Notes under the pieces: generated by a model
The model's input: only the letters and a program-made list of their open reading frames with translations
The model's database searches: none
What the model was told of the DNA's origin: nothing
Origin: Myxococcaceae bacterium
GTDB taxonomy: Bacteria; Myxococcota; Myxococcia; Myxococcales; Myxococcaceae
DNA: 64,000 nt
Reading direction: 5' to 3'
Assembly: GCA_046351675.1 (NCBI GenBank)
Contig: JAXLYB010000002.1
Location: 192,001-256,000 of the forward strand
Part shown: positions 86 to 59,401 of the stretch, one piece after another
How the letters are laid out: the number at the start of each line of letters is the position of its first letter
Numbering within the stretch: the stretch's first letter is position 1
Position numbers and translations under genes: made by a program

Positions 86-130
86 CTCTCTCCCTCTCCT
101 CTTCAGAGGAGAGGGTCGGGGTGAGGAGAG
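86..130. repeat. REP/MITE-like palindromic element (CCCTCTCC-TCTTCAGA-GGAGAGGG + TCGGGGTGAGGAG), copy 1
   Basis: An 8-bp perfect inverted repeat flanks a short loop and is followed by a G-rich tail. The same module recurs at least 19 more times in the window. Confidence 0.8.
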
Positions 131-161
131 AACCTCTTCCTCGAGCCCGACAAATCGTCAC

Positions 162-656
162 TCAGACCCGCACCGGCAGTGCCTTGAAGTGCACCGGGTC
201 GGTGCTGGCCGGCAGACACACCAACACCACCCGCTCGCCCTTCGCGATGCGCGACATCCACTTCGGGTGAAGCACGACGAACGGATTCTCGACCGTCGTC
301 ACCTCGCGAGGCCCGGCGTTCCCGCGAAAGAACGCCTCCTCGACGCTGAGCGACAACCTCGGCTCAGCCGACACGCGCGTGAGCCCCTCGGTCGCGAGCG
401 CCCACCCGCTCTCGGTCACCTGCCCGACGACGAACAGCATCTTCGGCCGCATGTTGCGCACGAACTCGAAGCCGAACGCGATGGCCACCGCGGTCGACAC
501 GAACATCGCCAGGCACACGAACGCACCGCCCGCGAACACCGACACCGCGCTGATGAACATGCCGATGCCGATCGCCGCGACGACGCGAAAGCCCGCGGCC
601 ATCGCGCGCTTCGCACTCGCCGCCCGGTACAGCTCGTCGACTTCGAGGTCGGTCAC
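162..656 (-). CDS. hypothetical membrane protein (2-3 predicted TM helices)
   Basis: 164-aa ORF with an ATG start, a hydrophobic core AAIGIGMFISAVSVFAGGAFVCLAMFV and high GC3. Confidence 0.5.
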   Translation of the reverse strand: MTDLEVDELYRAASAKRAMAAGFRVVAAIGIGMFISAVSVFAGGAFVCLAMFVSTAVAIAFGFEFVRNMRPKMLFVVGQVTESGWALATEGLTRVSAEPRLSLSVEEAFFRGNAGPREVTTVENPFVVLHPKWMSRIAKGERVVLVCLPASTDPVHFKALPVRV

Positions 657-703
657 GTGAGCCGCGAAAACTACCTCAGTTCACATGGCCTCCTGAACCC
701 AAG

Positions 704-710
704 AAGGAGG
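704..710 (+). promoter_or_regulatory. Shine-Dalgarno AAGGAGG, 5 nt upstream of the ATG at 716
   Basis: aagaaggaggtcgccATG. Confidence 0.5.
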
Positions 711-715
711 TCGCC

Positions 716-2023: not shown

Positions 2024-2163
2024 TCCAGCTCGATGCGCGTCGAGTCGCCGCCACGACGTGAGGGTTGGTCCCCCCACCACCCACACGCTTCGTGGCGGCA
2101 AGCCGTTGAAACCACGTGTGCCGCGCCCATGGCGCACCCCTCGCAACCGTCTGGACCGTCGCC

Positions 2164-4847: not shown

Positions 4848-4886
4848 AGCACACTGTCCCCCTCTCCCCCTGGGGAGAGGGTCGGG
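4848..4886. repeat. REP-like element copy (plus a partial inverted half at 4912-4925)
   Basis: cctctccccctggggagagggtcggggtgagggg. Confidence 0.8.
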
Positions 4887-4953
4887 GTGAGGGGTGAACC
4901 GGATCCGTTGAACTGCGCGACTCCCCTCACCCCAGGCGCTAGAGACCGCGCTC

Positions 4954-10330: not shown

Positions 10331-10370
10331 CTCCCTCTCCCCCCGAGGGGGAGAGGGTCGGGGTGAGGGG
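10331..10370. repeat. REP-like element copy
   Basis: ctccctctccccccgagggggagagggtcggggtgagggg. Confidence 0.8.
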
Positions 10371-11531: not shown

Positions 11532-12662
11532 GTGGCGCGAATTCCCATGGGCTCGCGCTACACCGCCACGCTCGAGGCGACGCGCGGGGTGCCGTTCACC
11601 TGCCGCTCGTGCGCCTTCCGCGGCGTCGCGGTGGTGCGCGCGAAGGGGGTGGGCGAGGCGTCGGCTCCGCTCTGGATCGGCACCGGCGCCGCGAAGGACC
11701 GTGCTCGCACGGACGCGGAGAAGGACCTCCGGCGCAAGGCCGAGATCCTCGCGGCGGCCGGCACGTGCCCGAAGTGCAGCAAGGCGTGGCGCGATGACCT
11801 CCACGCCGAGCGTTCCAGCGCGCAGGTGTTCGCCGTGCTCATCGCGATGGGCGGCACCGCGCTCCTCGCGTTCACGGTGCGCCGCTTCGACCCGATGCTC
11901 GGGTTCCTCATCTCGGCGGCGATTGCGGGGCTGCACTACAGCTCGAAGTCGTGGCTCTGGAGCGAGGTCGACCGGCGCGTCAGCGTGGTGACCGAGGCCG
12001 ACGCGCGCAAGTTGCTCGACACCGAAGCGCGCGCCGCTCTCGAGGCGAGCGCCGCCGCGGCAGAGGCAGAGTCGAGGCCGCTCCCGCCGCCCGCGACCAA
12101 CTGCGTGCTCTGCCCGCTGTGGAAGAGCGGCTACCAGGACGTCGTCAGCAAGCCGCTCCACGGCAAGCTCCGGCTGGGCCTGTTGGCCATCGAAGGCGAC
12201 GAGGGCACGTGGATCGAGGCGTCTGACCTGACCATGGAGCCCGAGGTGGCGCTCGAGATTGCGCGCCGTGGGCTCGCGGCGCGGTCGAGCAAGCCGTTGC
12301 GCGAGGTGCAGCCCGGCGTGTGGAAGGCCGAATGGGACGACTGGTTCGCCGCGGCCCGCATCGCCGTGCCCGAGCTCTTCGCGTCGCTGAAGGTCGACGG
12401 CGCGCCCATCGCGTTCACGCCCTCGGAGAACACGCTCTTCATCGCGGGCGAGAACGACCGCGCCGGCCTCGAGCTCGCGACGAAGCTCGCCTGCACGCAC
12501 GCGCGCGAAGTCATCACCGGCAAGACCGTCGCCGGCGCGTTCACCGCGCGCCCGTGGAAGCTCGACGGCGAGCACTTCGCGCCGTGGTACCCGTCGGCCG
12601 ACTCCGAGCCGCTGCTCAAGCAGCTCGAAGAGGTCGTTGGCGACAAGGGCTTCCGCCCCTAG
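11532..12662 (+). CDS. hypothetical membrane protein with N-terminal CxxC...CxxC zinc ribbon
   Basis: CRSC...CPKC, then two TM helices and a soluble C-terminal domain. The start abuts the previous stop. Confidence 0.55.
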   Translation: MARIPMGSRYTATLEATRGVPFTCRSCAFRGVAVVRAKGVGEASAPLWIGTGAAKDRARTDAEKDLRRKAEILAAAGTCPKCSKAWRDDLHAERSSAQVFAVLIAMGGTALLAFTVRRFDPMLGFLISAAIAGLHYSSKSWLWSEVDRRVSVVTEADARKLLDTEARAALEASAAAAEAESRPLPPPATNCVLCPLWKSGYQDVVSKPLHGKLRLGLLAIEGDEGTWIEASDLTMEPEVALEIARRGLAARSSKPLREVQPGVWKAEWDDWFAAARIAVPELFASLKVDGAPIAFTPSENTLFIAGENDRAGLELATKLACTHAREVITGKTVAGAFTARPWKLDGEHFAPWYPSADSEPLLKQLEEVVGDKGFRP

Positions 12663-12663
12663 C

Positions 12664-12704
12664 TCCCTCTCCCTGCGAAGCGGGGAGAGGGCCGGGGTGA
12701 GGGG
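12664..12704. repeat. REP-like element copy
   Basis: ctccctctccctgcgaagcggggagagggccggggtgagggg. Confidence 0.8.
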
Positions 12705-15680: not shown

Positions 15681-15719
15681 CTCCCCCTCTCCCCGTGGGG
15701 AGAGGGTCGGGGTGAGGGG
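15681..15719. repeat. REP-like element copy in the sbcD-sbcC-like intergenic region
   Basis: ctccccctctccccgtggggagagggtcggggtgagggg. Confidence 0.8.
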
Positions 15720-15857
15720 AGACGCACCACCGAGCAACGGAACGACGCCCGCGCCGCGAAGGGAACTCGTCCGCGCGAGAGGAAACGCACTACCGACCGA
15801 CGGCACGACGCCCCCGCCACGAAGGAAACTCGTTCGCGCGACGGGAGACGCACCCGC
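15719..15857. repeat. 63-bp tandem direct repeat, about 2.2 copies
   Basis: gagacgcaccaccgagcaacggaacgacgcccgcgccgcgaagggaactcgtccgcgcgagag is repeated as gaaacgcactaccgaccgacggcacgacgcccccgccacgaaggaaactcgttcgcgcgacgg, then a partial third unit. Confidence 0.7.
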
Positions 15858-17546: not shown

Positions 17547-17552
17547 CTCGTC

Positions 17553-17581
17553 TCCCTCTCCCCCCGAGGAGGAGAGGGAGA
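17553..17581. repeat. truncated REP-like element (stem-loop only)
   Basis: ctccctctccccccgaggaggagaggga. Confidence 0.6.
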
Positions 17582-30189: not shown

Positions 30190-30208
30190 CGCCCTCTCCT
30201 CTTCAGAG

Positions 30209-31658
30209 CTGACGATCCAACACAACTTGTGAATCGCGCGCGGGCATGATCTCGCTCGCAAATGCACGCACTTCCTCCGATTCACGACGAGTTCCGAGAC
30301 TGCGAGTTTCCCGACCTTCGTCTTCTCGACCGAGTCGTGAGGATTGCGAGACAGCTCGAGGTGGACCCGAAGGCGAGCCTGCCCGAGTCGTTTCGAAACC
30401 CGTCGCAGCTCGAAGGCACGTACCGGTTCTTCGGTAACGAGCGCATTGACCTGGGCACCGTCGTCGCCGGCCACGTGAGCAACACGGTCCGACGCGTCGA
30501 TGTCGCGAAGCGCGCGCTGGCCATTCACGACACGACATCGTTCGTCTTCGACGGAGAGCGAGACGGACTCGGAATCGTCGACCGCTCGCAGCAAGGCTTC
30601 TATGCCCACGCGTGTCTCGCTGTTTCCGCGGATGGTGTGCGGCAACCTCTTGGATTGCTCGCGCTCGACACGTGGATGCGCACGAAGAAGAAGGGCAAGC
30701 GCACGACGGAAGCGCGACGCAACGAGAAGGAGCTCGAGTCCGACCGTTGGTTGGAGCAGTCGCTTGCCGTCGAAGAGCTCGTGTCGAACTCGACGGTGCT
30801 CATCCACGTCGAGGACCGCGAGGGCGATATCTACGAGAGCCTCGCGACGCGGGCGCAGCGAGGGATGCACTTCATCGTTCGCGCGTCGTCAAACCGAGTT
30901 GTGAAACTCGAAGGCGGCGGCACACAGAACGTCCTCGAATCCGCTCGCACGCTTCCGTTGCGCTCGAAGCGAGAGGTCGACCTCTCGGAGCGTCACAATC
31001 CGTTCGCGCACCTCCCAAAGACTTCGCATGGCAATCGCCAGGCGCGCACGACGCAGGTTGAGATTCGCTCCGGCGAGCTGACGCTGCGACGGCCGCAGAG
31101 AGCTCTCCGGTCGTCTGACTTGCCCAAAGAGCTTCGCCTCAACGTGGTGCACGTCGGCGAGGTCGATGCGCCTCCAGGCGAGAAGGCGGTCGAGTGGCTC
31201 CTCTTCACGACCGAGCCCGTCGATTCAGCGACCGATGCTGAGCAAGTCGTCGACTTCTACCGAACGCGATGGCTCATCGAGGAATACTTCAAAGCGCTCA
31301 AGACGGGCTGCAAGTACGAAGACAAAAGGCTCGAGAGCGGCCCCGCGCTCCTCAACGCGCTCGGTGTTTTTGCCATCGTCGCGTGGCGGCTTCTCGTCCT
31401 GCGCTTCATCGACCGAACGGCGGACGACAGCCCAGCCGAGTCCGTCGCGACAGACGCCGAAATCGCAGTGCTCGTCGCGAAGAAGCGCCTGAAGCCGAAC
31501 GCTACAGCGCGCGAATTCACCACCGCACTCGCTCGCTACGGCGGTCACCTGCCGCAGAACGGACCACCCGGCTTACTCATCCTCTGGCGAGCGCTCCGTG
31601 CACTGCAGCAAGTCGCGGAAGGCTGGTCCTTGGCTCAGGAAATGTGATCAATCCTCAG
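30209..31658 (+). mobile_element. IS4-family (IS50/Tn5-like) insertion sequence, about 1450 bp, with 10-bp direct target duplication CTCTTCAGAG
   Basis: Left end CTGACGATCCAACACAACTTGT resembles the Tn5 outside end CTGACTCTTATACACAAGT. The reverse complement of the right end (CTGAGGATTGATCACATT) pairs with the left end at 12 of 18 positions. Flanks 30199-30208 and 31659-31668 are identical. GC content is lower than that of the flanking DNA. Confidence 0.8.
30262..31647 (+). CDS. IS4 family transposase (Tn5 Tnp-like DDE)
   Basis: 461 aa. C-terminal YRTRWLIEEYFKALKTGCKYEDKRL is the IS4/Tn5 YREK signature region. The N-terminus resembles the Tn5 Tnp DNA-binding region. Confidence 0.9.
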   Translation: MHALPPIHDEFRDCEFPDLRLLDRVVRIARQLEVDPKASLPESFRNPSQLEGTYRFFGNERIDLGTVVAGHVSNTVRRVDVAKRALAIHDTTSFVFDGERDGLGIVDRSQQGFYAHACLAVSADGVRQPLGLLALDTWMRTKKKGKRTTEARRNEKELESDRWLEQSLAVEELVSNSTVLIHVEDREGDIYESLATRAQRGMHFIVRASSNRVVKLEGGGTQNVLESARTLPLRSKREVDLSERHNPFAHLPKTSHGNRQARTTQVEIRSGELTLRRPQRALRSSDLPKELRLNVVHVGEVDAPPGEKAVEWLLFTTEPVDSATDAEQVVDFYRTRWLIEEYFKALKTGCKYEDKRLESGPALLNALGVFAIVAWRLLVLRFIDRTADDSPAESVATDAEIAVLVAKKRLKPNATAREFTTALARYGGHLPQNGPPGLLILWRALRALQQVAEGWSLAQEM

Positions 31659-31713
31659 CTCTTCAGAGGAGAGGGTCGGGGTGAGGAGAGAAGCGTCGGG
31701 CGTTGGAGTCGCC

Positions 31714-37249: not shown

Positions 37250-37294
37250 GGCCCCAAGTGTAGGGCAGGACACGGTTTGCTAGCGTGCGCCGCG

Positions 37295-38529: not shown

Positions 38530-38571
38530 CTCCCTCTCCCTGCAAAGCGGGGAGAGGGTCGGGGTGAGGGG
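38530..38571. repeat. REP-like element copy
   Basis: ctccctctccctgcaaagcggggagagggtcggggtgagggg. Confidence 0.8.
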
Positions 38572-40268: not shown

Positions 40269-40781
40269 GTGAACGACCATGGAACGCTCTCGACCTGGTA
40301 CGAGAAATACGGCGCGCTCGTGCATCGCCGCTGCCGCACGCTCATGGGCAACGACGCCGACGCGAACGACGCGCTCCAGGAGACGTTCTTGCGCGCGCAC
40401 CGCACCCGAAAGGACGACGTGATGCAGCCGCTGCCCTGGCTCTACGCCATCGCCACGCGCATCTGCTTCGACGCGCTCGAGTCGAGCAAGCGGCGACGGC
40501 CGACCGATGACTCGGTGCTCACGCGCCTCAAGGAATTCGTCGGGCTGGCCGAGGCGCGCCATGCGTCGGTGGAAGACAAGCTCTGCATGGGCTCGGCGTT
40601 GGTGACGCTCGAGGCGACGACGCGCGAGATGGCGTTGCTCCACTGGGTCGACGGCATGACGCAGGAAGAGGTGGCGCAGCAGACGGGGTATTCGCGGAAG
40701 ACGGTCGGCGTGAAGTTGCGTGAGGCCGAGGTGAAGTTGCGCGGGCTGTATGGCGCCGAGCTGACGGAGGTGTCGACGTGA
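40269..40781 (+). CDS. ECF-family sigma-70 factor (GTG start; 170 aa)
   Basis: Region 2 (YEKYGALVHRRCRTLMGNDADANDALQETFLRAH) and region 4 (MTQEEVAQQTGYSRKTVGVKLREAEVKLR) are present. Confidence 0.8.
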   Translation: MNDHGTLSTWYEKYGALVHRRCRTLMGNDADANDALQETFLRAHRTRKDDVMQPLPWLYAIATRICFDALESSKRRRPTDDSVLTRLKEFVGLAEARHASVEDKLCMGSALVTLEATTREMALLHWVDGMTQEEVAQQTGYSRKTVGVKLREAEVKLRGLYGAELTEVST

Positions 40782-40792
40782 AGACCCAGAAA

Positions 40793-40833
40793 CTCCCTCT
40801 CCCCTCGAGAGGGGAGAGGGTCGGGGTGAGGGG
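40793..40833. repeat. REP-like element copy (direct orientation)
   Basis: ctccctctcccctcgagaggggagagggtcggggtgagggg. Confidence 0.8.
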
Positions 40834-40875
40834 CGCGCCGCAGCAAACAATGTTTTCGCGGAAGACGGTGTCGAC

Positions 40876-41634
40876 ATGAGCGCTGAAGGCCCCTCACCCC
40901 AGCCCTCTCCCCTCTCGAGGGGAGAGGGAGAGCTTGCCCCGACCCGCCGCGAAGGCTGCCCCGCGCGCGTCACGCTCGAGAGCGCCTCAGCCGGAGACTG
41001 GGCCGATGGAATCCGCGCCCACGTCGACGCCTGCCCGCACTGCCGCGAACAACTCCAGGCGCTCGAAGCCCACCGCGCCGCCTTCCTCGCCGCGCGCCCG
41101 ACCGAGCGATTCCTCGGTCAACTCGACGCCCGCGCGCAGAAGAAGCCCGCCCGGCGCGCCTGGCTCCCCGCACTCGGCCTCGTCGCCACCGCCGCCGTCG
41201 CGCTCTTCGTCCTCCTGCCGCGCAACCCGGATCCTACCGGTGTGAACTTCAAGGGCCTCTCGAGCATCGCGCTCAAGCGTGGCGACCGCGTCGAGACTGC
41301 CGCCTCGTCCACGAAGCTCGCCCCCGGCGACGCCCTGCGCTTCTCGGTGCACGCCCCACGCGACGGCTTCGCAGTGGTGCTCGAGCGCGACGGCGCCGGC
41401 AAGGTGACCATCGTCGCGCCCTTCGCCGCGACCGCGCCGCTGGCGGTGAGCGTGGGCACGACCGACCTCCCCGACTCCGCGGTGCTCGACGACGTGCGCG
41501 GCGCCGACACCTTCTTCACCGTCTTCTCCGAGCAGCCCTTCGAGCTGAAGCCACTCGTCGACGCGCTCGAGCGCGGAGAATCACCGCGCTGCCCCGGCTG
41601 CACCGTGGAGGTGTCGAGCTTCGACAAGCCGTGA
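40876..41634 (+). CDS. zf-HC2 (ChrR/RsrA-like) anti-sigma factor with one TM helix
   Basis: HVDACPHCREQL zinc-finger motif, and TM WLPALGLVATAAVALFVLL. The first 20 codons are REP-derived (SPQPSPLSRGEGE). Confidence 0.7.
   Translation: MSAEGPSPQPSPLSRGEGELAPTRREGCPARVTLESASAGDWADGIRAHVDACPHCREQLQALEAHRAAFLAARPTERFLGQLDARAQKKPARRAWLPALGLVATAAVALFVLLPRNPDPTGVNFKGLSSIALKRGDRVETAASSTKLAPGDALRFSVHAPRDGFAVVLERDGAGKVTIVAPFAATAPLAVSVGTTDLPDSAVLDDVRGADTFFTVFSEQPFELKPLVDALERGESPRCPGCTVEVSSFDKP
40890..40928. repeat. REP-like element copy (inverted orientation), overlapping the 5' end of the anti-sigma ORF
   Basis: cccctcaccccagccctctcccctctcgaggggagaggg. Confidence 0.8.
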
Positions 41635-47718: not shown

Positions 47719-47757
47719 TCTCCCTCTCCTCTTCAGAGGAGAGGGTCGGGGTGAGGA
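47719..47757. repeat. REP-like element copy (direct)
   Basis: tctccctctcctcttcagaggagagggtcggggtgagga. Confidence 0.8.
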
Positions 47758-47780
47758 GTAACCCTCGAGCGTTTCTGCGT

Positions 47781-47818
47781 CTCCCCTCACCCCAACCCTC
47801 TCCCCAGCGGGGAGAGGG
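47781..47818. repeat. REP-like element copy (inverted)
   Basis: tcccctcaccccaaccctctccccagcggggagaggg. Confidence 0.8.
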
Positions 47819-49535
47819 GGCCACGACCAGGGCGCTCGATGATCACGTCATCCACCACCAGCGCATCCACCGGGTGCGACAAGAAGAACGCCAGCGCATC
47901 GGCCTCCGTCGCGACGATGGGCTCGCCCTGCCCATTGAGCGACGTGTTGAGCAGCACCGGCACGCTCGTCTCCCGCGCAACCCGCGCGAGCAGCGCCCCG
48001 ACCAGCGAGTCCTCCCGCACCGTCTGCAGCCGCGCCGTACCATCCACGTGCGTCACCGCCTCGAGCTTCGCCCGCGCCTCGCCCTTCACCTCAGCCACCG
48101 TGGTCATGAACGGCCCAAGCCGCGGCGCGAAGGGCCCGAAGAAGTCCGCGGCCCGCGCCTCCGCCACCATCGGCGCGAAGGGCCGAAACGGCTCGCGGCG
48201 CTTCACGACGCGATTGAGGCGCTCCTTCACCGCGACCGGCGTCGGCAACGAGAGCAGGCTGCGCTGCCCCAGCGCACGCGGCCCCCACTCGAAGCGGCCC
48301 TGTACCCACGCGAGCACCTGCCCCTGCATCAGGCGCTCCGCCGTCGCCTCGACCACGTTCTCGACGCGCTGCACGCGCAACCCGAGCCCCTTCGCCACCT
48401 CGCTCGCCACCGAGCCCTGCACGCCCGTGCCCCACGCCGCGTGCGCGAAGCCCGTGCGCGCCTCGCCCTTCTGCGCCGCCGCGAGCAACGCCGCGCCGAG
48501 CGCCCCGCCGGCGTCACCGGCCGCTGGCTGCACCCACAAGTCGGAGAAGCCCGCCTCGCGGAAGAGCCGCGCGTTGGCGACCGCGTTCAGCGCCACGCCG
48601 CCCGCGAGGCAGAGCGCGTCAGCCCCGGTGAGCACCTTCGCGCGCTTCGCCAGCGCCAGCAGCGCGTCTTCGAGCACCGCCTGCAACGTGGCGGCGATGT
48701 CGGCGCCGCGCTGATCAGCCTCCGGCACCGCGCCGCCCTCGAGCGACCACGGCGTGCCCGGCATCCGTCGCGGCCCCAGCAGCGCCTCGAGCTTCGAGGA
48801 GAACCCGACCTCGGTGTTGGTGTGCGCGTCGAAGTACTCGAGCCCGAGCGTGAACTGCCCGTCGCCCCGCACCTGGAGCAGTCGCTCGAACTCCGCGCGG
48901 AACTTCGGCGTGCCGAACGCCGCCAGGCCCATCACCTTGTACTCGCCCTCGTTCACCTCGAAGCCGAGGTACGCGGTGAGCGCCGAGTAGAGCAGGCCGA
49001 GCGAGTGCGGGAAGCCGATGCGCTCCTTGCACTCGAGCGTGCGGCCCTCGCCGAGCCACAGCGCGGTGCTCGTGTCTTCGCCTACTGCGTCGACGGTGAG
49101 GATCGCCGCGCGCTCGAACGGTGACGTGAAGAAGGCGCTCGCGGCGTGGGAGGCGTGGTGCTCGCCGTGCGAGATGCGCGCGCGGTCGATGCCGAGCCCC
49201 GAGCTCAGCGCGTCGAGCACCCACACCTTGCCGCCCAGCTGAGAGGCGAGCGCGCGGGGGAATTGCCGCAGCGACCGGGGGAAGGTGCGCAGCATCGACA
49301 GCAGGACTCGTTCGAGCTTCCCGTACGGGTTCTCGTAGAAGACGACCTGGTCGACTGCGCCGGGCTCGAGCTTGCCGACCGCGAGGCATGCGCGTGCTGC
49401 GCGCAGTGGCAACGAGGCGTCGTTCTTGATGCGCGAGAAGCGCTCTTCCTGCATCGCGGCGACGAGTTGGCCGTCGACGAGGAGGGCCGCGGCTGCGTCG
49501 TGGTAGTTCGCGCTGATGCCGAGGATGACGCTCAT
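47787..49535 (-). CDS. carbamoyltransferase (NodU/CmcH family)
   Basis: MSVILGISANYHDAAAALL... and HGEHHASHAASAFF. Length 582 aa. The 3' end runs into a REP (ERPGRGPLSPLGRGLG). Confidence 0.85.
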   Translation of the reverse strand: MSVILGISANYHDAAAALLVDGQLVAAMQEERFSRIKNDASLPLRAARACLAVGKLEPGAVDQVVFYENPYGKLERVLLSMLRTFPRSLRQFPRALASQLGGKVWVLDALSSGLGIDRARISHGEHHASHAASAFFTSPFERAAILTVDAVGEDTSTALWLGEGRTLECKERIGFPHSLGLLYSALTAYLGFEVNEGEYKVMGLAAFGTPKFRAEFERLLQVRGDGQFTLGLEYFDAHTNTEVGFSSKLEALLGPRRMPGTPWSLEGGAVPEADQRGADIAATLQAVLEDALLALAKRAKVLTGADALCLAGGVALNAVANARLFREAGFSDLWVQPAAGDAGGALGAALLAAAQKGEARTGFAHAAWGTGVQGSVASEVAKGLGLRVQRVENVVEATAERLMQGQVLAWVQGRFEWGPRALGQRSLLSLPTPVAVKERLNRVVKRREPFRPFAPMVAEARAADFFGPFAPRLGPFMTTVAEVKGEARAKLEAVTHVDGTARLQTVREDSLVGALLARVARETSVPVLLNTSLNGQGEPIVATEADALAFFLSHPVDALVVDDVIIERPGRGPLSPLGRGLG

Positions 49536-49559
49536 GGGCGTCGCACCCGGGCCGGCCAC

Positions 49560-49780
49560 CGCGAAGGTCGCCGCGAGTGAGCCGGCGGGAGCGAGACGTC
49601 GTTCTTGATGCGCAAGAAGCGCTCTTCCTGCATCGCCGCGTCCAAGTCGTTCGCGCTCCCGAGGATGACGGCCGCGCTTGAAGGGTTACCCCTCACCCCG
49701 ACCCTCTCCCCCGCGGGGGAGAGGGAGCCTGCTTCCCCGACCGGTGCTGCGTCGTCGCTCTTTTTGATGACGCTCATGCC
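49560..49780 (-). pseudogene. degenerate partial duplicate of the carbamoyltransferase 5' end, interrupted by an inverted REP copy (49689-49727)
   Basis: 49584-49676 matches 49422-49535 (tcgttcttgatgcgc[a/g]agaagcgctcttcctgcatcgc...gaggatgacg). 49766-49778 repeats gatgacgctcat. Confidence 0.5.
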
Positions 49781-52058: not shown

Positions 52059-55000
52059 TCAGCGAATGGTGACGACCACGCGGTAGGCGAACTGCGAGTT
52101 GGCGCCGCTGGTCGAGAAGCCCTTCACCTGCACGTACCAGGTCACGCTCGTGGTGCCGGTGTTCTTCACGCCGGTGTGGAGCGGGCTGGTGCCGGTGCCA
52201 TCGACGAGCGAGCAGTTGCCGCGGCCGTCGTCGTCGCTGGTGGCCAGCGACGTGCCGGTGGGCCCGAGAATCGAGATGACGCTGTCGACGCCGAGGCTCT
52301 CGCAGGTCTCGGTGTTGCCCTCGATGATTTCAGCGCGCACCGCCTTGCCGGCCGGCACGGTGATGGCCCACACGTCGACGTCGGTCGCCAACGAGTGGTC
52401 GCCGCCGCCGAAGCCCTCGGGGAAGGTGAGCAGGCGCGTCTCGGCGGTGGCGGTGGTGTCGTTGACGCCCGAGATGCCGACGCCCTCGGTCTCGGTGCCG
52501 CGCGGCGCCTCGATGGCCGCCTCGAGGAAGTAGCGGGTGAGGGTCGCGTCGTTCCCGCTCTCCTCGACCTGGATGTAATAGGTGCCGACCGGCAGCAGGG
52601 TGACGATGGCGCTGCAGCTCGAGATGCCCGAGGTGGTGTCGGTGAGCATCGCCATGCCGTTGCTGGTGAGCAGGCGCAGCGTGGTGGTGCCGGTCTGGCA
52701 ATCGCCCGCCGAGGTGAAGGTCTCGAAGCGCATCACCGTCGCCGCGGCCACCGACACGCGGAACACGTCGACGTCGCCCACCGTGCCGATGGCGCCGCGG
52801 AGCATCGTGGTGCCGGTGATCTGCACCGTCGAGCTGTCGGCCTGCTGGCGCGTGTTGTTCGGCTCGATCTCATCGACGGCGTTGATGCGGCACATGTTGT
52901 TGCAGCCGTCGGTGTTGATCATGTTGCCGTCGTCGCATTCCTCGACCGCCGGCGTGAGGATGCCGTCGCCGCACACGATGGGCGTGAAGCGCACCTCGAG
53001 GCCGTAGCCGGTGATGAGGTCGGTGTCGCCGTAGTCCATCACCTGCACGTAGACCGTCGCGCCCGGAGCCAGCGAGAGGCTCGCCGTCGAGCAGCGATCG
53101 AGCGAGCCGTTGCGGTCGTCGTTCGACACCAGCACCGCGCGCGTCGCGTCGTACACCGTCATGCCGGTGTCGATGCTCGTGCCGCACGCCACGCCCTGGC
53201 CGTAGCCACTCGCGCGGTTCCACGTGTCGAGCTGCAGCGTCTGCGGCACCGCGGTGTCGTTGGTGATGGCGAACACGTCTTCGTCGCCGGCGGGCGAGAT
53301 GGCCGCGAGCACCCCCTGCGTGCCGTTCGACGCGCGCACCGCGCCGTTGGCGTTGGCGCGGGTGATGGCGCTCGCGTCGACGTCGTTGCCCACGATGCCG
53401 CTGCCGCCGGTCGAGGGCGTGCCGTCTTCGTTCGGCTCGGTCTCGGTGGGCTCGGTGCGGCAGCCCGCGCTGCACCCGTCGAGGCTGCGGGTGTTGGCGT
53501 CGTCACACTGCTCGTTGCCGTCGATGAACCCGTCGCCGCAGGTCTGGGTGCGCATCACGCACATCGAGGGCATGGTGCCGGTGCAGCTCCAGCCGACCTC
53601 CACGGTGCAGGTCGCCGAGCAGCCGTCGCCCGGCGTGGTGTTGCCCTGGTCGCAGCCCTCGGTGCTCGCCTTCACGCCGTCGCCGCAGGTGGTGGTGCAC
53701 GTCGAGGGCATGCCGGTGCAGGTGAAGCCGGTCTCCACGGTGCAGGTCGCCGAGCAGCCGTCGCCCGGCGTGGTGTTGCCCTGGTCGCAGGTCTCGCCGT
53801 TCAAGATGCGCCCGTCGCCGCAGATGCCGCGGCACACCGAGGGGTTGGTGCCGGTGCACGCGTAGCCGCTCTCGATGGTGCAGGTCGCCGAGCAGCCGTC
53901 GTTGTTCGCCAGGTTGCCGTCGTCGCACGCCTCGGTCGCGGCCTTCGCGCCGTCGCCGCAGCGAATGGTGCACATCGAGGGCGCGCCGGTGCACGAGTAG
54001 CCCGCCTCGACCTGGCACGTCGCGGAGCAGCCGTCGTTGGGCAACAGGTTGCCGTCGTCGCAGGTCTCGCGCGCGCCGGTCAGGCCGTCGCCACACACCG
54101 CGGTGCACACCGACGGAGAGCCGGTGCACGTCGAGCCCGCCTCGACCACGCACGCGCTCGAGCAGCCGTCGCCGTTGGCGGTGTTGCCGTCGTCGCACGC
54201 CTCGTTGCCCTGTTTCGTCCCGTCACCGCAGTTGCCGCTGCACACCGAGGGCATGCCGCTGCACGCGTAGCCCGCCTCGATGGCGCAGGTGGTGGAGCAG
54301 CCGTCGCCCGCCGCCACGTTGCCGTCGTCGCAGCGCTCGGCGCCGCTGATCAACCCGTCGCCGCAGCGCGTGACGCAGCGCGAGGGCACGCCCGCGCACT
54401 GGTAGCCGGTCTCGACGGTGCACGTCGCCGAGCAGCCGTCGCCCGCGGTGGTCCCCATGTCGTCGCAGCCCTCGGCCCCCACGGGAATGCCGTCGCCGCA
54501 CGTGGTGGTGCAGGTCGAGGGCGTGCCGGTGCAGGAGAAGCCGAGCTCCTTGAGGCAGTTGGCCGAGCAGCCGTCACCGGCGGTGCGGTTGCCGTCGTCG
54601 CAGTCTTCCGACGGGTTCTGCATGCCGTCGCCGCACGAGCTGGTGCACTGGCTGGGCATCATGGTGCACGCGTAGCCGGGCTCGACGCGGCAGCCCGCGG
54701 AGCAGCCATCGCCGCCCATCGCGTTGCCGTCGTCACAGGTCTCGGTGCCGGCGACCACGCCGTTGCCGCAGCGGGTGACGGTGCAGTTGGTGTCGCAGCC
54801 GTCGCCGTTGGTGGCGTTGCCGTCGTCGCACGCCTCGGTGCCGGTCTTCACGCCGTTGCCGCAGCCGGTGGGCCGGCAGGTGCCGCCCGCGCCGTCGTCG
54901 CAGCCGTCGTCGTTGGTGTGGTTGCCGTCGTCGCACGCCTCGCCCATCTGCTGCACGCCGTCGCCGCACGCGCCCGCGGCGCAGCGGTTCATCGCGCACA

Positions 55001-55409
55001 GGCCGCTCTGGCAGTCGGCAGGCACCTGGCAGCCTCCGTTGGTGGCGCACTGGCGGGTGGGCGCGCAGCTGCCGCCGCAGTCGACGCCGGTCTCGTCGCC
55101 GTTGCGCATGCCGTCGGTGCACGAGCCCGCCGCGACGCTGCAGGTGTGGGTGCCGAGGTTGCAGACGTTGGGCGCGCAGTCGAGGTTCGACAGGCACTGC
55201 ACGCACGCGCCCTGGCCGTCACAGGTGCCGGTGTTGCACCGCGTGCCCAGCGAGGTCGGCACGTGCCGCGCGACGCCGCTGCTGCTGCACACGTCGTCGG
55301 TGCACGGGTTGCCGTCGTCGAGCGCGTCGCAGGTCGGCTTGCCGCACGAAGAAGCGAGGGCGAGGCCGAGCGCGAGGCTCGCAGCGAGAGAAGCGCGGGA
55401 GCTGATCAT
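52059..55409 (-). CDS. giant lipoprotein built from 'myxococcus cysteine-rich repeat' units plus C-terminal pre-peptidase (PPC)-like beta domains (ATG at 55409)
   Basis: Lipobox LALASSCG. More than 15 CGDGxxxxxExCDDGNxxxGDGCSxxC units. The C-terminal 450 aa are beta-rich PPC-like domains. Confidence 0.8.
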   Translation of the reverse strand: MISSRASLAASLALGLALASSCGKPTCDALDDGNPCTDDVCSSSGVARHVPTSLGTRCNTGTCDGQGACVQCLSNLDCAPNVCNLGTHTCSVAAGSCTDGMRNGDETGVDCGGSCAPTRQCATNGGCQVPADCQSGLCAMNRCAAGACGDGVQQMGEACDDGNHTNDDGCDDGAGGTCRPTGCGNGVKTGTEACDDGNATNGDGCDTNCTVTRCGNGVVAGTETCDDGNAMGGDGCSAGCRVEPGYACTMMPSQCTSSCGDGMQNPSEDCDDGNRTAGDGCSANCLKELGFSCTGTPSTCTTTCGDGIPVGAEGCDDMGTTAGDGCSATCTVETGYQCAGVPSRCVTRCGDGLISGAERCDDGNVAAGDGCSTTCAIEAGYACSGMPSVCSGNCGDGTKQGNEACDDGNTANGDGCSSACVVEAGSTCTGSPSVCTAVCGDGLTGARETCDDGNLLPNDGCSATCQVEAGYSCTGAPSMCTIRCGDGAKAATEACDDGNLANNDGCSATCTIESGYACTGTNPSVCRGICGDGRILNGETCDQGNTTPGDGCSATCTVETGFTCTGMPSTCTTTCGDGVKASTEGCDQGNTTPGDGCSATCTVEVGWSCTGTMPSMCVMRTQTCGDGFIDGNEQCDDANTRSLDGCSAGCRTEPTETEPNEDGTPSTGGSGIVGNDVDASAITRANANGAVRASNGTQGVLAAISPAGDEDVFAITNDTAVPQTLQLDTWNRASGYGQGVACGTSIDTGMTVYDATRAVLVSNDDRNGSLDRCSTASLSLAPGATVYVQVMDYGDTDLITGYGLEVRFTPIVCGDGILTPAVEECDDGNMINTDGCNNMCRINAVDEIEPNNTRQQADSSTVQITGTTMLRGAIGTVGDVDVFRVSVAAATVMRFETFTSAGDCQTGTTTLRLLTSNGMAMLTDTTSGISSCSAIVTLLPVGTYYIQVEESGNDATLTRYFLEAAIEAPRGTETEGVGISGVNDTTATAETRLLTFPEGFGGGDHSLATDVDVWAITVPAGKAVRAEIIEGNTETCESLGVDSVISILGPTGTSLATSDDDGRGNCSLVDGTGTSPLHTGVKNTGTTSVTWYVQVKGFSTSGANSQFAYRVVVTIR

Positions 55410-56389: not shown

Positions 56390-56398
56390 GCCGCGCCG

Positions 56399-57031
56399 TC
56401 AGGGCTTGCGTCGAATGACGATGCCCTGCGAGTAGCGGAACACGCCCCACGCGACGCACGCCATCGACGCCACGCCGCCCAGGCGCACCGCGTAGAAGGC
56501 GAGGTCGTCGTTGATCTTCACCATCTCGGTGACGGTCATCATCGTGCCCAGGCCCAGCGCGAGCAGAATCGCCGCGCCAAAGCCCATCCAGTACAGGCCG
56601 ACGACGTGTGACGGGCCGGTGAGCCCGATGTCCGACAGGCTGAACACCGACGGCGAGAGCGTGTTGGTGCCGGCGGTCAGCTGCGCGCTCGGCAGCTCGG
56701 CGGGCATCGCGCCCATCACCGAGTTGACCAGCACCTTCGCCGACTCGTCGTCGTGGCCCTGGGCCTTGAGGCGCGTGATGGCGTCTTCGCGCGAGACGCC
56801 CTCGGTCTTCCACTTCGTGACCTGGTCGTAGGCGGTGCCCGACGCAGCGGCTGCGGGCTCGCTCGGAGAAGGCGAGGCAGAAGGGGGCGCGTCAGCAGTC
56901 GCAGTGCTCGTCGCGGTGGGAGCGGCTCCGCCCTCGGGCGCGGGCTTGTCCTTCCACCACGGGGAGTCCGGCGGGGAATCGCTCACGAGGCAACGCTGCG
57001 GGACCTGCCGGCCACTGTCAATGATCGCCAT
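56399..57031 (-). CDS. hypothetical membrane protein (the only sensible 3' part of a 717-aa antisense-rich ORF)
   Basis: The C-terminal 70 aa contain two TM helices (HVVGLYWMGFGAAILLALGLGTMM; LGGVASMACVAWGVF). Divergent from the PrsW gene. Confidence 0.45.
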   Translation of the reverse strand: MAIIDSGRQVPQRCLVSDSPPDSPWWKDKPAPEGGAAPTATSTATADAPPSASPSPSEPAAAASGTAYDQVTKWKTEGVSREDAITRLKAQGHDDESAKVLVNSVMGAMPAELPSAQLTAGTNTLSPSVFSLSDIGLTGPSHVVGLYWMGFGAAILLALGLGTMMTVTEMVKINDDLAFYAVRLGGVASMACVAWGVFRYSQGIVIRRKP

Positions 57032-57070
57032 CGCCCCGGTCGCGGCGGGTACACTCCCGGGCGCCCCGCC

Positions 57071-57835
57071 ATGATCTACCTGCTCGCCTTTTCCGGCGTC
57101 GTTCCCGCGGTGGTGTTGATGGCGGTGATGGCGCGCTTCGACAGCAAGCGCCCCGAGCCCAAGAAGCAGCTCTACCTCGCGACGCTCTTCGGCGGGCTCT
57201 CGACCATTCCCGTCATCTTCCTGCAGGTGGCGCTCGAGAAGCTGAACCCCGGCGGCGTGAGCGGCGCGCTGTACACCGCGTTCGGCGTCGCGGCGCTCAC
57301 CGAGGAGACCGCCAAGGCGCTCGTCGTCTACTTCGTGGTGTGGAAGAGCGCGGCCTTCGACGAGCGGCTCGACGGCATCGTGTACGCCACGCGCGCGGGC
57401 CTGGGCTTCGCGCTGGTCGAGAACGTCGGCTACCTGATGGGCGCCGAGAGCCTGCAGGGCTTCATCGGCATCTTCATCGTGCGCGCCATTCTCGCGGTGC
57501 CCGGCCACGCCATCTACGCGGGCTTCATGGGCTACTGGGCCGCGCGGAAGAAGTTCGACCAGACCGGCCCGGGGCTGCTCGGCGGGCTGGGCATCGCCAT
57601 CTTCCTGCACGGCGCGTACGACGCGGCGCTCTTCCTCATCGGCGTGCTCGGCAAGCAGGGCGGGCTCGCGGCGCTGTTGATTCTGCCGCTCCTCGCGGTG
57701 CCGCTGGTGGTGGTCATCGGCGGGTTCCGTCGGCTCAAGCGCCACGCCGAGGAAGCCCTGCGCCTCGACGACGTCTCGCACGCGCCGCGCCCCGAGCCGC
57801 GGCTGCCGTTTGGCATGGGCTTCGTCTTGCGGTGA
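57071..57835 (+). CDS. PrsW-family intramembrane metalloprotease
   Basis: EETAKAL (EExxK) and FLHGAYDAALF (FxxxHxxxD) motifs within 6-7 TM helices. Confidence 0.8.
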   Translation: MIYLLAFSGVVPAVVLMAVMARFDSKRPEPKKQLYLATLFGGLSTIPVIFLQVALEKLNPGGVSGALYTAFGVAALTEETAKALVVYFVVWKSAAFDERLDGIVYATRAGLGFALVENVGYLMGAESLQGFIGIFIVRAILAVPGHAIYAGFMGYWAARKKFDQTGPGLLGGLGIAIFLHGAYDAALFLIGVLGKQGGLAALLILPLLAVPLVVVIGGFRRLKRHAEEALRLDDVSHAPRPEPRLPFGMGFVLR

Positions 57836-57841
57836 GGGTCG

Positions 57842-59164
57842 ATGGCGACGCGCTTCTCCTTCGAGCTGGCGAAGGTGGCCGAGAAGTTCTCGGTGAAGCT
57901 CGACGCGCGCGGCCTGATTCCCCTCGACGACGCGCGGCGCTGGCTCGCACAGACCACCGCGTACGTGCGCGAGAGCGCTGATCAGACCTGGGCCGCGCTG
58001 CTCTCGCTCGAGTCGGCCGAGGAGTTCGTCCGCGCGGCGTCGGCGCTCGAATGGAAGTTCCCCATGCTGCGCGGGTGGGACAACGAAGACGCGGTGCGCC
58101 GCTACGGCGAGGGCGCGCTGCCGTGGCTCGAGACGCTGCTCGACCGCATCAAGGGGCGCGTGGGCGCGATTCCCGCGCTGCCGTTCAACTTCGTGGGCTC
58201 GCACCTCCTGGCGCTCGGGGGCGACGCGGCGGGCGCTGCGCTGCGCGTGAAGCTGTCGAGCGACGCCGACCCCGATGGGCTGGGCTTCGTCGTCGACTGG
58301 CTCAAGCGGCAGAAGGCCGACGGGTGGGCGGGGCTGGTGCGCCTGGCCGAGAGCGGCAACCCCGAGGCGAAGCGCGCGCTCGACGTGCTCGAGAAGCGCG
58401 ACCCGAAGGGCGTGGCGCGGGTGCTCAAGCAGGTGGGCGTGGCGGTCGCGAAGAAGAAGAAGGCCGAGCTGACGGTGGCGGGCGTGCTGCACGTGCTCGA
58501 CGCGGCCGCCGCGGCGCCGATGGGCGCGCGCATTCCGTGGCCGTCGCTGCACCCGACGTCAGGGCACTTCGAGCCGCACGCGTGGCGGGTGGTGACGGTG
58601 CGCCAGGAGAAAGGCGACCACTGGGGCGTGCTCATCGAGGTGGTGCAGGGCGACCTGCTCGACCCGAAGGTGAAGTGGCCGGCGGTGGTGCAGCGCTACA
58701 CGTACGGCTCGAAGGTGCAGTCGGGCGGGCGGTACGTGCTCGACGCGAAGCGGTTGAAGGTGAACCGGCGCACGAAGGTGACCGAGGAGCTCATCGAGAC
58801 GCTCGACTTGCGCGCCGGGCAGTCGGTGACCGGCGCGGTGGAGTCGTGGAAGGACGTGCTGCTGATTCGCCATGCGCTCGCGAGGGACCCTGGCGTGTTC
58901 TTCGCGCCCGCGGAGAAGGCGGCGAAGGTGCTCAAGGTGCCGAAGGGGAAGGTCGTGTCCGTCGTGACGAAGTGGGAGCACGTCGATGGCACGGCGCTCG
59001 GGAAGGACGAGCACGCGCGGTTGCCGTCGAGCTCGGTGGCGTGGAAGAGCCTCGCCGAGGCGTTGGTCGCGAGGGACGCGTCGAAGTTCCAGGCGGGGGC
59101 GGTGAACACCGAGTGGCGCTCGTTGCTCCCTCTCCCTGCGACGGCGGGGAGAGGGTCGGGGTGA
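57842..59164 (+). CDS. hypothetical protein
   Basis: 440 aa, Lys/Ala-rich centre. The last 15 codons are REP-encoded (LPLPATAGRGSG). Confidence 0.6.
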   Translation: MATRFSFELAKVAEKFSVKLDARGLIPLDDARRWLAQTTAYVRESADQTWAALLSLESAEEFVRAASALEWKFPMLRGWDNEDAVRRYGEGALPWLETLLDRIKGRVGAIPALPFNFVGSHLLALGGDAAGAALRVKLSSDADPDGLGFVVDWLKRQKADGWAGLVRLAESGNPEAKRALDVLEKRDPKGVARVLKQVGVAVAKKKKAELTVAGVLHVLDAAAAAPMGARIPWPSLHPTSGHFEPHAWRVVTVRQEKGDHWGVLIEVVQGDLLDPKVKWPAVVQRYTYGSKVQSGGRYVLDAKRLKVNRRTKVTEELIETLDLRAGQSVTGAVESWKDVLLIRHALARDPGVFFAPAEKAAKVLKVPKGKVVSVVTKWEHVDGTALGKDEHARLPSSSVAWKSLAEALVARDASKFQAGAVNTEWRSLLPLPATAGRGSG

Positions 59165-59399
59165 GGGGCTGGAATTGCCACCTGCGCCCGACGCTTCTCT
59201 CCTCACCCCAACCCTCTCCTCTGAAGAGGAGAGGGAGCAAGTCGAAGTTCCAGGCGGGGGCGGTGAACACCGAGTGGCGCTCGCTGCTCCCTCTCCCTGC
59301 GACCGCGGGGAGAGGGTCGGGGTGAGGGGCTGAAATTGCCACCTGCGCCCGACGCTTCTCTCCTCACCCCAACCCTCTCCTCTGAAGAGGAGAGGGAGC
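59078..59399. repeat. 161-bp tandem duplication (2 copies), each containing one direct and one inverted REP element plus the last 85 bp of the upstream CDS
   Basis: gtcgaagttccaggcgggggcggtgaacaccgagtggcgctcg...gaagaggagagggagcaa occurs at 59080 and 59241 with 3 mismatches. Confidence 0.85.
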
Positions 59400-59401
59400 A
59401 A

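Follow-up and report, generated by a model that had tools for sequence, protein, structure and literature searches.

A probable lineage-specific burst of the BoxC/PIT/TMECO motif in a member of the Myxococcota, and a Tn5-like insertion sequence clade inserted in its hairpin

We analysed a stretch of 64,000 nucleotides from a Myxococcaceae bacterium (assembly GCA_046351675.1, contig JAXLYB010000002.1, positions 192,001 to 256,000), hereafter the window, in which a repeat unit of about 40 nt of non-coding DNA occurs 17 times. These repeats very probably represent a lineage-specific burst, in an uncultured member of the Myxococcota, of a known element, the BoxC/PIT/TMECO intrastrand triplex motif. 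The gene content of the window is typical of this phylum and includes, according to Pfam, DUF4215 domains, cysteine-rich MopE repeats, TSP3 repeats, a Ser/Thr kinase, extracytoplasmic function (ECF) sigma factors, DUF4388 and a PilZ-Hsp70 protein. Because the window has a GC content of 71%, raw lists of open reading frames (ORFs) are useless, and genes were called with a self-trained codon model and checked against Pfam. In the gene map obtained by this way, the non-coding share of the window is 5.8%.

The original prediction, drawn from the letters of the window, had described about 20 copies of a palindromic element dispersed between genes, in both orientations and often as convergent pairs. 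The family is genuine and every position that it listed matches a real copy, although the count comes down to 17 copies, found at 13 loci. Indeed, the pattern CCCTCTCC-N(3-12)-GGAGAGGG matches the window 16 times against 0.00 times in 100 dinucleotide-preserving shuffles, and the octamer GGAGAGGG is present 34 times for 3.2 expected. The two octamer matches in surplus (30192 and 31668) come from the two halves of a 17th copy, which an insertion sequence (IS) has split at 30208/31659. Fifteen copies are complete, one is a hairpin without tail (17552-17580) and one is the IS-split copy; a search with nhmmer --max, using a profile built from the copies, found no extra degenerate copies in the window. 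The orientation, set by the tail YYGGGGTGAGGRG, is + for 11 copies (the split one included) and - for five, the last copy being tail-less. The convergent pairs are also real, as four tail-inward pairs are present (40793/40890, 47720/47783, 59126/59199 and 59287/59360): three associate unlike subtypes (A/C, B/A and B/A) and one is C/C, and the last two pairs form a single 161-bp tandem duplication with 98% identity. The density reaches around one repeat per 3.8 kb, and the repeats make up about a fifth of the intergenic DNA of the window. The copies and the features that adjoin them are listed here, the strand of a copy being that of its tail.

90..128, +: subfamily A copy; stem CCCTCTCCTCT/AGAGGAGAGGG, linker TCG, third block GGGTGAGGAGA; 33 nt past the stop of gene 162-656(-)
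4858..4894, +: subfamily C copy fitting the strict published TMECO pattern; divergent gene starts on either side
10331..10370, +: subfamily C copy between divergent gene starts
12663..12704, +: subfamily B copy; 12-bp stem with one T.G; in the 57-nt gap of convergent genes, beginning at the base after the stop of gene 11532-12662(+)
15683..15719, +: subfamily C copy; its tail is the start of the adjoining 63-bp x 2.2 tandem repeat
15714..15854, no strand: 63-bp x 2.2 tandem repeat, 82% matches, starting in the third block of copy 15683
17552..17580, no strand: hairpin-only copy; left arm C-type, right arm A-type, outer flanks TCT...AGA
30190..30208, +: left half of the IS-split subfamily A copy, from the first base after the stop of the response-regulator/histidine-kinase gene 29104-30189(+)
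30209..31658, +: 1450-bp IS, IS4 family, Tn5/IS50-like; transposase 30262-31647
31659..31702, +: right half of the split subfamily A copy; third block and 14-nt A-type extension AGAAGCGTCGGGCG
38530..38571, +: subfamily B copy; in a 59-nt convergent gap, 2 nt past the stop of 37277-38527(+)
40793..40833, +: subfamily C copy; left member of a tail-inward pair, 11 nt past the stop of the ECF sigma gene 40269-40781(+)
40890..40930, -: subfamily C copy; right member of the pair, hairpin identical to that at 40795
47720..47758, +: subfamily A copy; member of a tail-inward pair
47783..47820, -: subfamily C copy; provides the last 14 codons and TGA of the carbamoyltransferase gene 47787-49559(-)
49689..49727, -: subfamily C copy; lies inside the decayed duplicate of the next entry
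49536..49777, -: decayed duplicate of the carbamoyltransferase 5' end, about 140 nt of which align with the real start
59126..59168, +: subfamily B copy; provides the last 13 codons and TGA of gene 57842-59164(+)
59199..59237, -: subfamily A copy; tail-inward partner of copy 59126
59287..59329, +: subfamily B copy; duplicate of copy 59126
59360..59398, -: subfamily A copy; duplicate of copy 59199, 3 nt from the stop of 59402-63253(-)
59080..59401, no strand: 161-bp x 2.0 tandem duplication, 98% identical, made of a gene end and a B/A pair

The unit is composed, from 5' to 3', of (K)CT, a pyrimidine block CCCTCTCC followed by one to four variable bases, a 3-4-nt loop, the complementary purine block, a 3-nt linker (TCG, CCG, TTG or CTG) and a second purine block, GGGTGAGG plus one to three bases. 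The pyrimidine block also takes the extended form CCCTCTCC(C) and the second purine block the form GGGTGAGG(G); the right side of the consensus reads GGAGAGGG, a pyrimidine-rich dinucleotide, then GGGGTGAGGRG. In the 5' flank, (T/G/A)CT is found in 13 of the 17 copies, CC in three and CG in one. The stem measures 9-12 bp, its extension next to CCCTCTCC being variable in sequence yet self-complementary, and the second purine block is the mirror image of the first. The part initially described as a G-rich tail repeats the purine arm in mirror image and is a potential third strand. Three subfamilies, each made of near-identical copies, can be distinguished: A (stem ...CCTCT/AGAGG..., tail ...GAGGAGA and a 14-nt 3' extension, AGAAGCGTCGGGCG), B (12-bp stem CCCTCTCCCTGC/GCGGGGAGAGGG with one T.G) and C (stem ...CCCC/GGGG...). 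Computed as DNA, the single hairpins have energies of -9.6 to -12.7 kcal/mol, and the pair 40793-40930 can be folded as one long hairpin of 41 bp (-60 kcal/mol, z = -12.7). No direct repeats indicating a target-site duplication were seen around the intact copies of the window, and no part of the window matches Rfam at gathering thresholds.

The placement at gene ends and starts, which had also been predicted, is very strict: all 13 loci lie in the 5.8% of non-coding DNA or extend into the final codons of a gene. Copies 12663 and 30190 start at the base that follows a stop codon, copies 38530, 40793 and 59360 lie at 2, 11 and 3 nt from one, and the convergent gaps at 12.7 and 38.5 kb (57-59 nt) barely exceed the element in length. 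Among the unpaired copies near a stop codon, four of four are co-oriented with the gene concerned, a trend only, which we do not count as evidence; two other unpaired copies have the reverse orientation with respect to the stop nearest to them, and the symmetry of the pairs makes them uninformative. No common functional class was found with Pfam among the window genes that flank the copies. The unpaired tailed copies carry their G-rich strand on + in seven of eight cases (90, 4858, 10331, 12663, 15683, 30190 and 38530, the exception being 49689), and the GC skew stays mostly below zero until about 50 kb and is positive beyond, with a cumulative minimum near 49-50 kb. This 7:1 excess could be a bias relative to the replication strand, in a sample that is too small. 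We also observed that the tail-inward pair in 40269-41634 separates the ECF sigma factor gene from a downstream gene that has no Pfam hit and whose start is put by the codon model within the second copy of the pair; should the two genes form a sigma/anti-sigma operon, the pair would be transcribed within it.

Such positions could be those of an RNA 3'-end module, i.e., a terminator devoid of U-tract and possibly bidirectional, or a 3' hairpin protecting mRNA, selected in a genome of 71% GC without canonical terminators. Eight copies overlap, or lie 0-46 nt from, the stop of a co-oriented gene; all the convergent junctions with a gap of at least 30 nt, bar one, hold a copy; the T.G mismatch of subfamily B would become a U.G wobble in the co-oriented transcript; and termination was suggested for the same hairpins in Enterobacter sp. 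638 (PMC2869309). On the contrary, no T-run is present on either side of the copies, none of the six copies in 38-50 kb is among the sites retained by a terminator scan, and what comes after the hairpin is a G-rich block on one strand and a mixed sequence on the other. Moreover, two copies lie between divergent starts, several are anti-oriented, and the lack of an Rfam match points the same way. In Escherichia coli (E. coli), a separate canonical terminator hairpin stands at ilvC-ppiC both with and without the element, and PIT is described as devoid of promoter and terminator activity (Hoyne and Maher 2002, as cited by Holder et al. 2015, PMC4666352). The terminator function evoked in the original prediction thus encounters both a missing U-tract and, from what Holder et al. 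relate, a negative test in E. coli, and we consider an RNA module unlikely.

The copies had also been said to be frequently read through by ORFs. When judged by codon-usage gene calling and by the ends of Pfam domains, this holds for two genes, 47787-49559(-) and 57842-59164(+), while the remaining read-throughs are spurious ORFs. In the carbamoyltransferase gene 47787-49559(-), the terminal residues PGRGPLSPLGRGLG and the TGA stop come from copy 47783: the C-terminal Pfam domain is already complete 14 residues before the protein end, and the orthologues of two related loci (L132 and L133, described below) end right after the conserved ...HPVDAL..D..I.R. In gene 57842-59164(+), it is the third block of copy 59126 that supplies the end of the reading frame.

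The arrangement in three blocks corresponds to a motif that is already published. TMECO, previously called BoxC or PIT, is defined as 5'-CCCTCNCCC N3-6 GGGNGAGGG N3 GGGNGAGGG-3', one mismatched triad being tolerated (Holder et al. 2015, PMC4666352), and the same motif has been described by Kaplan et al. 2016 (PMC5100583) and in the genome paper of Enterobacter sp. 638 (Taghavi et al. 2010, PMC2869309); for the earlier BoxC/PIT literature, Holder et al. cite Bachellier et al. and Hoyne and Maher 2000 and 2002. E. coli K-12 has 23 TMECO and a set of 262 proteobacterial genomes has 3610, no single genome exceeding 143; they are always intergenic, often in inverted pairs of two subtypes, and their flanking genes in E. 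coli belong to no functional class (PMC4666352). The window consensus, CCCTCTCCC-loop-GGGAGAGGG-TCG-GGGTGAGGG, is that of the E. coli K-12 TMECO type B, and the K-12 copies nos 12 and 20 (CCCTCTCCC...GGGAGAGGGTCGGGGTGAGGG) are identical to it in all three blocks and in the linker, so that the G-rich tail can be recognised as the potential third strand of a purine-motif triplex. Four copies of the window fit the strict pattern and 11 fit it when the first loop may reach 10 nt, which was allowed because the stem is longer. The five type-A copies depart from it at triad 9 only, by three positions changed together (C-G.G to T-A.A). We also confirmed the K-12 BoxC pair at alx-sstT directly in the sequence; the RefSeq annotation holds none at this place.

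The pattern of hairpin and tail matches at least 120 IMG/VR contigs, whose GC content spans 37-73%, and this range rules out a species-specific repetitive extragenic palindrome (REP). Similar sequences are carried by 127 plasmid or chromid records, with up to 31 per Azospirillum replicon and eight conjugative plasmids represented, and by only 4 of 50,697 cultured phage records; from this last number, many of the 'viral' IMG/VR contigs probably contain host DNA and are not a proof that phages bear the element. The genome-specific REP or MITE (miniature inverted-repeat transposable element) initially envisaged gives way to a motif that is, block for block, the published E. coli element, present in hundreds of other genomes. 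The element is already known; what is new is the burst in this host lineage and the new subfamilies.

A REP or REPIN element moved by a REP-associated tyrosine transposase (RAYT) encoded elsewhere, with the hairpin as recognition structure and the tail-inward doublet as replicative unit, would also be a short, GC-rich, extragenic hairpin, would also form inverted doublets that can be folded as one long hairpin, and would leave no target duplication and near-identical copies within subfamilies; REP-targeting IS are, moreover, already known (PMC1525189). Nevertheless, REP families are species-specific, while the present motif is the same from E. coli to Myxococcota, and its mirror-repeat third block has no counterpart in REPs. 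Holder et al. never met transposase or integrase remnants near TMECO (PMC4666352). A Pfam scan of 49 window proteins found no RAYT gene, i.e., no Y1 transposase domain. RAYT-associated REPs have, as Nunvar 2010 and Di Nocera 2013 reportedly describe, a conserved GTAG or CGTC head next to the palindrome; no copy of the window has either, the 5' flank being CT. We therefore hold a RAYT-driven origin to be improbable, on a par with the RNA module, and retain the BoxC/PIT/TMECO assignment.

Each of the 16 tailed copies (the 15 intact ones and the split one) presents 9-11 consecutive allowed triads (G.G-C, A.A-T or T.A-T). The core purine arm GGGAGAGGG is the same read both ways, so that mirror and direct repeats are indistinguishable in the core and it is the stem extension that tells them apart. 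In the window, all five A-type stems ...CCTCT/AGAGG... (pairs 9-11 being T-A, C-G and T-A) go with a third block ...GAGGAGA, and all ten B- and C-type stems ...CCCC/GGGG... (pairs 9-10 both C-G) go with ...GAGGGG. The same correspondence was examined in 140 non-identical instances carried by unrelated contigs. There, a C-G pair at position 9 is accompanied by G on the third strand in 104 of 109 cases. For position 10, the third-strand base is G with 27 of 30 C-G pairs and T with 6 of 8 T-A pairs, while a position 10 that is unpaired has G in only 34 of 91. When the third strand was left free in the scan, T-A at position 9 was associated with T in eight of nine cases (six distinct sequences) and with G in none. 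The covarying bases are located at the 3' end of the third block, which implies a mirror symmetry, antiparallel to the purine arm, and is compatible neither with a direct repeat nor with an alternative Watson-Crick hairpin. On the basis of these base correspondences, we argue that selection acts on a three-stranded fold or on a protein reading both purine blocks. RNA strands are, from what the literature says, excluded from purine-motif triplexes; single-stranded DNA is thus indicated, and an RNA hairpin would leave the covarying third block unexplained. A metagenome scan with the subfamily-A pattern returned only five matches, in unrelated organisms of 41-72% GC; its tail was fixed, so that it is no test of covariation, and it is uninformative on the copy number in the source organism.

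For the E. coli motif, Kaplan et al. 2016 (PMC5100583) proposed a switch between G-quadruplex, hairpin and duplex with a regulatory role and saw ion-dependent changes in circular dichroism, and the ten tailed copies of B- and C-type do contain four G-runs (GGGG AGA GGG TC GGGG TGA GGGG). The five type-A copies have only two runs of at least three G, so that no G-quadruplex is possible for them, and yet they keep every triad; elsewhere, T-A stem pairs go with a third-strand T, which is useless to a quadruplex. The flanking genes, in the window as in E. coli, belong to no one functional class. The switch is excluded for type A, and for the family as a whole we give it very little credit.

The hairpin is also the target of an IS. 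The one that splits the copy at 30190 (30209-31658) encodes a transposase with Tnp_DNA_bind and DDE_Tnp_1 domains (Pfam), whose homologues give hits to the Tn5 dimerisation domain; its nearest plasmid-borne IS4 relatives are around 33% identical. Its ends, CTGACGATCC...GGATTGATCAC, begin with CTGAC and resemble the Tn5 outside end. This IS sits at the hairpin axis, and when it is removed along with a 9-10-bp duplication, a perfect A-type copy is restored. The identical transposase is encoded on 21 short metagenome contigs, of which ten were read: they show at least four different left and at least six different right flanks, each of them a half hairpin, which places the identical IS in at least six further repeat copies elsewhere. 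A transposase with 60% identity (P0012) is found in five IS copies of GCA_047600485.1, each at the axis of CCCTCTCCC-GCGA-GGGAGAGGG and each with a 9-bp duplication that reconstructs an intact element (5/5). The tail is on the right of the IS in four of them (L212-L215) and on the left in one (L216); hence, the hairpin is the target of the IS and not a part of it. For two further relatives (P0009 and P0004, 63-67% identical), hairpin arms stand at the IS ends on seven of seven metagenome contigs, and every other flank that was examined in the clade (60% identity or more) also falls in the hairpin. Every readable case is an insertion in the hairpin loop; 12 of them are verified 9-bp duplications or reconstructed targets, and in the others the flank shows a hairpin arm at one IS end only. 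On the short metagenome contigs, flanks are often chimeric between IS copies, and duplications were therefore not scored there; they were scored in the window and in the five copies of GCA_047600485.1.

One could imagine the reverse relation, i.e., that the element is a MITE derived from, or moved by, this resident IS, the flanking hairpin halves being IS terminal repeats. Each IS copy is indeed flanked by both halves; however, the halves and the 9-bp duplication rebuild intact elements, the asymmetric tail can be on either side of the IS (L216 vs L212-L215), and the inverted repeats of the IS (CTGAGGATCC...) have no similarity to the repeat element, whose intact copies lack a target duplication. 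The element is, moreover, present in genomes without this IS, such as E. coli K-12. The rebuilt intact targets and the tail on either side contradict this scenario, which we regard as the least credible of all.

IS that target REPs are known, namely ISRm22 (an IS4-family member of Sinorhizobium meliloti), IS1397, ISKpn1, IS621, ISPpu9/10 and ISPa11 (Tobes and Pareja 2006, PMC1525189). TMECO motifs, for their part, were stated to be unlinked to transposons, with no transposase or integrase remnants near the sites (PMC4666352); the targeting by a Tn5-like IS does contradict this published lack of association. More distant relatives of the transposase (P0084, 41%, L226-L229; P0070, 43%, L230-L234) were observed inside other GC-rich palindromes, one of them GGGGAGGAGGC-GCGT-GCCTCCTCCCC with three different flanks, the other with perfectly complementary 34-nt arms on either side. 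To target palindromes may be common to the whole of this IS group, the target sequence shifting between subclades.

The remodelling of gene ends and the local rearrangements that had been foreseen are visible in the window, where an IS insertion, two replaced C-termini and three adjacent duplications accompany the copies. The duplications concern 3 of the 13 loci (59080-59401, 15714 and 49689). In the first, the 161-bp unit consists of the last 48 nt or so of gene 57842-59164 plus the B/A pair, and one of its boundaries is the outer edge of the A copy. In the last, the decayed carbamoyltransferase duplicate starts with the same ATGAGCGTCATC that overlaps the upstream stop; in L132, the carbamoyltransferase gene and its upstream neighbor overlap (GTGA), with nothing between them. 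At this place of the window, the original carbamoyltransferase start overlaps the upstream stop (ATGA), an insert of about 100 nt that contains the repeat copy is flanked by the direct repeat GTCATC and followed by a decayed N-terminal coding copy, and the working start lies 240 nt downstream. The 5' end of this gene was apparently disrupted, then rescued by duplication. The tail-less copy 17552, for its part, looks like a tail-inward pair collapsed by deletion between CCCTCTCC direct repeats, if one judges from its composite arms. Exactly this event is found in E. coli Z135-5, where the alx-sstT pair of K-12 has become a tail-less hairpin by deletion between direct repeats. TMECO has been reported as a 'source of genomic instability' (PMC4666352), and the duplications and the collapsed pair of the window fit this description, as expected of a replication-slippage hotspot.

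Other E. coli alleles were compared. In B-type strains (T7Express, L249), the alx-sstT region is replaced by about 400 nt of unrelated sequence. The ilvC-ppiC copy (L250 vs L252-L254) is present in K-12-like genomes and missing from a large class that includes O157:H7. The junctions of the ilvC-ppiC alleles differ on both sides, so the unit gained or lost exceeds the three-block motif and measures around 48-62 nt. This is close to the 56 bp quoted for BoxC.

We then considered the host lineage. A set of 80 carbamoyltransferase loci, covering about 1.3 Mb and many phyla, was assembled from species-representative genomes. The nearest ones belong to two metagenome-assembled genomes (MAGs) labelled Archangium (L132 and L133, 76-78% amino acid identity), followed by Polyangiaceae, Kofleriaceae and Nannocystis at 57-58%. 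The element is present in one locus of the 80, L132, with five copies over 16.9 kb, two of which form a tail-inward pair at the matching position 3' of the carbamoyltransferase gene; none was found in the equally close L133 nor in the 78 further loci. The 9.4-Mb 'Archangium sp.' MAG GCA_047600485.1 has four intact and five IS-occupied copies in about 93 kb sampled, and the supplementary table of Holder et al. gives one copy for Myxococcus xanthus DK1622, the other model myxobacteria that we looked for being unlisted there (PMC4666352). A metagenome contig of a related strain that covers the 38.5-40.8-kb region breaks inside copies at both ends, as assemblers do at high-copy repeats. The 37-nt subfamily-A sequence has no match in species-representative genome contigs, so that the source species is not one of these representatives, and exact matches to window proteins came only from short metagenome contigs. 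Taken together, the ends of the related-strain contig, the copies of L132 and the identical IS elsewhere indicate, if indirectly, that the family is not restricted to the window. The distribution is patchy and burst-like, as described for E. coli vs Salmonella, at around one copy per 3.8 kb.

How could such an element multiply? Once the G-rich strand is in single-stranded form, its second purine block could lie in the major groove, antiparallel to the purine arm, and build the triads G.G-C, A.A-T and T.A-T. The unit would be a selfish or near-neutral DNA element whose folded single-stranded form multiplies in a copy-and-paste manner, leaving no target duplication, with the help of a mobilising enzyme presumably encoded outside the window; its spread would be tolerated only between genes or at very gene ends. 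We tentatively put forward, as a possibility that we rate well below even, that the intrastrand triplex, and not just the hairpin, is the form selected or recognised, and that BoxC/PIT/TMECO is a structure-defined DNA parasite that spreads horizontally, would have reached hundreds to thousands of copies in this lineage, and would have become the safe landing pad of a specialised clade of Tn5-like IS. The starting point of this possibility is a third block that stays compatible, triad by triad, with the stem across phyla.

Several observations weigh against the main reading, that of a burst of the BoxC/PIT/TMECO motif. No mobilising enzyme was found among the window genes, and no target duplication at the copies. 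In E. coli, the alx-sstT polymorphism is a deletion between direct repeats and not an excision, the filled and empty ilvC-ppiC alleles are separated by an indel of about 48 nt with diverged junctions and no duplication, and neither of these two comparisons gave a clean filled/empty insertion junction. The seven unpaired + copies against a single - copy, together with the close fit to stop codons, could mean a function rather than a selfish spread. The triplex was seen in isolated E. coli single strands (CD, NMR), but neither in duplex DNA nor by dimethyl sulfate footprinting in vivo (PMC4666352), and its formation by the window copies, predicted here from their letters, is not demonstrable by computation. 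The covariation counts contain related copies and are not numbers of independent events. Finally, for the source organism, a genome-wide abundance is deduced from 64 kb of sequence and from indirect evidence.

Among the other genes of the window, three have repeated architectures. The 1264-aa ORF 31714-35508(-) has an N-terminal PilZ domain, a long linker of 78-bp tandem repeats (34157-35077, six copies, 91% identical) and a C-terminal Hsp70 domain, only the Hsp70 part being backed by the codon model. Gene 52059-55409(-) encodes a very large secreted-type protein with 11 cysteine-rich DUF4215 repeats and a PPC domain, with periodicities of 135, 270 and 405 bp at 53559-54985. Gene 59402-63253(-) encodes a very large secreted-type protein with cysteine-rich repeats and MopE-type metal-binding motifs.

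BoxC/PIT/TMECO has been known since the 1990s without an accepted function or a known route of spreading. The present host lineage is more than 10-fold denser in the element than any published genome, while a close relative is element-free at one locus; this combination is suited to filled/empty comparison and to the phylogenetic profiling of a mobilising gene. The natural three-way compensatory variants (C-G.G to T-A.A or T-A.T) favor the importance of the third strand and separate the triplex from the G-quadruplex, and the Tn5-like transposase family, which recognises the element, offers a protein probe for it. If the triplex is truly the selected form, this lineage would be the best system for the 30-year-old question of the nature of BoxC. 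For the annotation of GC-rich genomes, the lesson is that such repeats create spurious ORF extensions (PSPLGRGLG) as well as real, accidental C-terminal tails. What goes beyond the cited literature is the density in a Myxococcota lineage, the IS clade targeting the hairpin loop and the duplications adjoining three copies; the points worth keeping are this density beside a repeat-free relative, the covariation that follows the triplex rule and the Tn5-like IS clade targeting the hairpin.

These features can be compared with those of known systems. REP, BIME and REPIN elements are likewise short extragenic palindromes whose doublets form long hairpins, which leave no target duplication and are targets of IS; the window repeats differ from them by the lack of a GTAG/CGTC head, by a RAYT that was not found in the window, by a distribution that is not species-specific and by the presence of the third block. 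H-DNA is also a homopurine-homopyrimidine mirror repeat capable of R.R-Y triads. Here, on the contrary, the three blocks are on one strand, so that the triplex needs single-stranded DNA and not the supercoil-driven unpairing of a duplex. For ISRm22, an IS4-family element, 100% of the copies occupy the axis of a palindromic, GC-rich repeat and show a short duplication (PMC1525189), and with this precedent the hairpin-axis insertion described here is a new example of a known behaviour; its target is, however, BoxC/TMECO, and its duplication is of 9 bp, as for Tn5/IS50, vs 6 bp in ISRm22. The CCCTCTCCCXX(X)GGGAGAGGG repeats of Enterobacter sp. 638 have the same hairpin, and their roughly 100 copies are often duplicate or triplicate at gene 3' ends; they were described as a hairpin only and presumed to be a terminator, the third block being unmentioned (PMC2869309). 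The closest system remains BoxC/PIT/TMECO itself. The three blocks and the linker (CCCTCTCCC/GGGAGAGGG/TCG/GGGTGAGGG) are those of the K-12 type B, with the same 5' CT, and both sets are exclusively intergenic, occur in both orientations and in inverted pairs of unlike subtypes, are patchy in relatives and are accompanied by small local rearrangements. The window differs by its density (17 copies in 64 kb vs 23 in the K-12 genome and at most 143 per genome in the published data), by its Myxococcota host, by its longer stems (10-12 bp) and by its subfamily A, which has T-A.A in place of C-G.G at triad 9 and T-A.A also at the extra triad 11, with a 14-nt 3' extension; and while Holder et al. saw no link with mobile elements, the hairpin is here the target of an IS clade.

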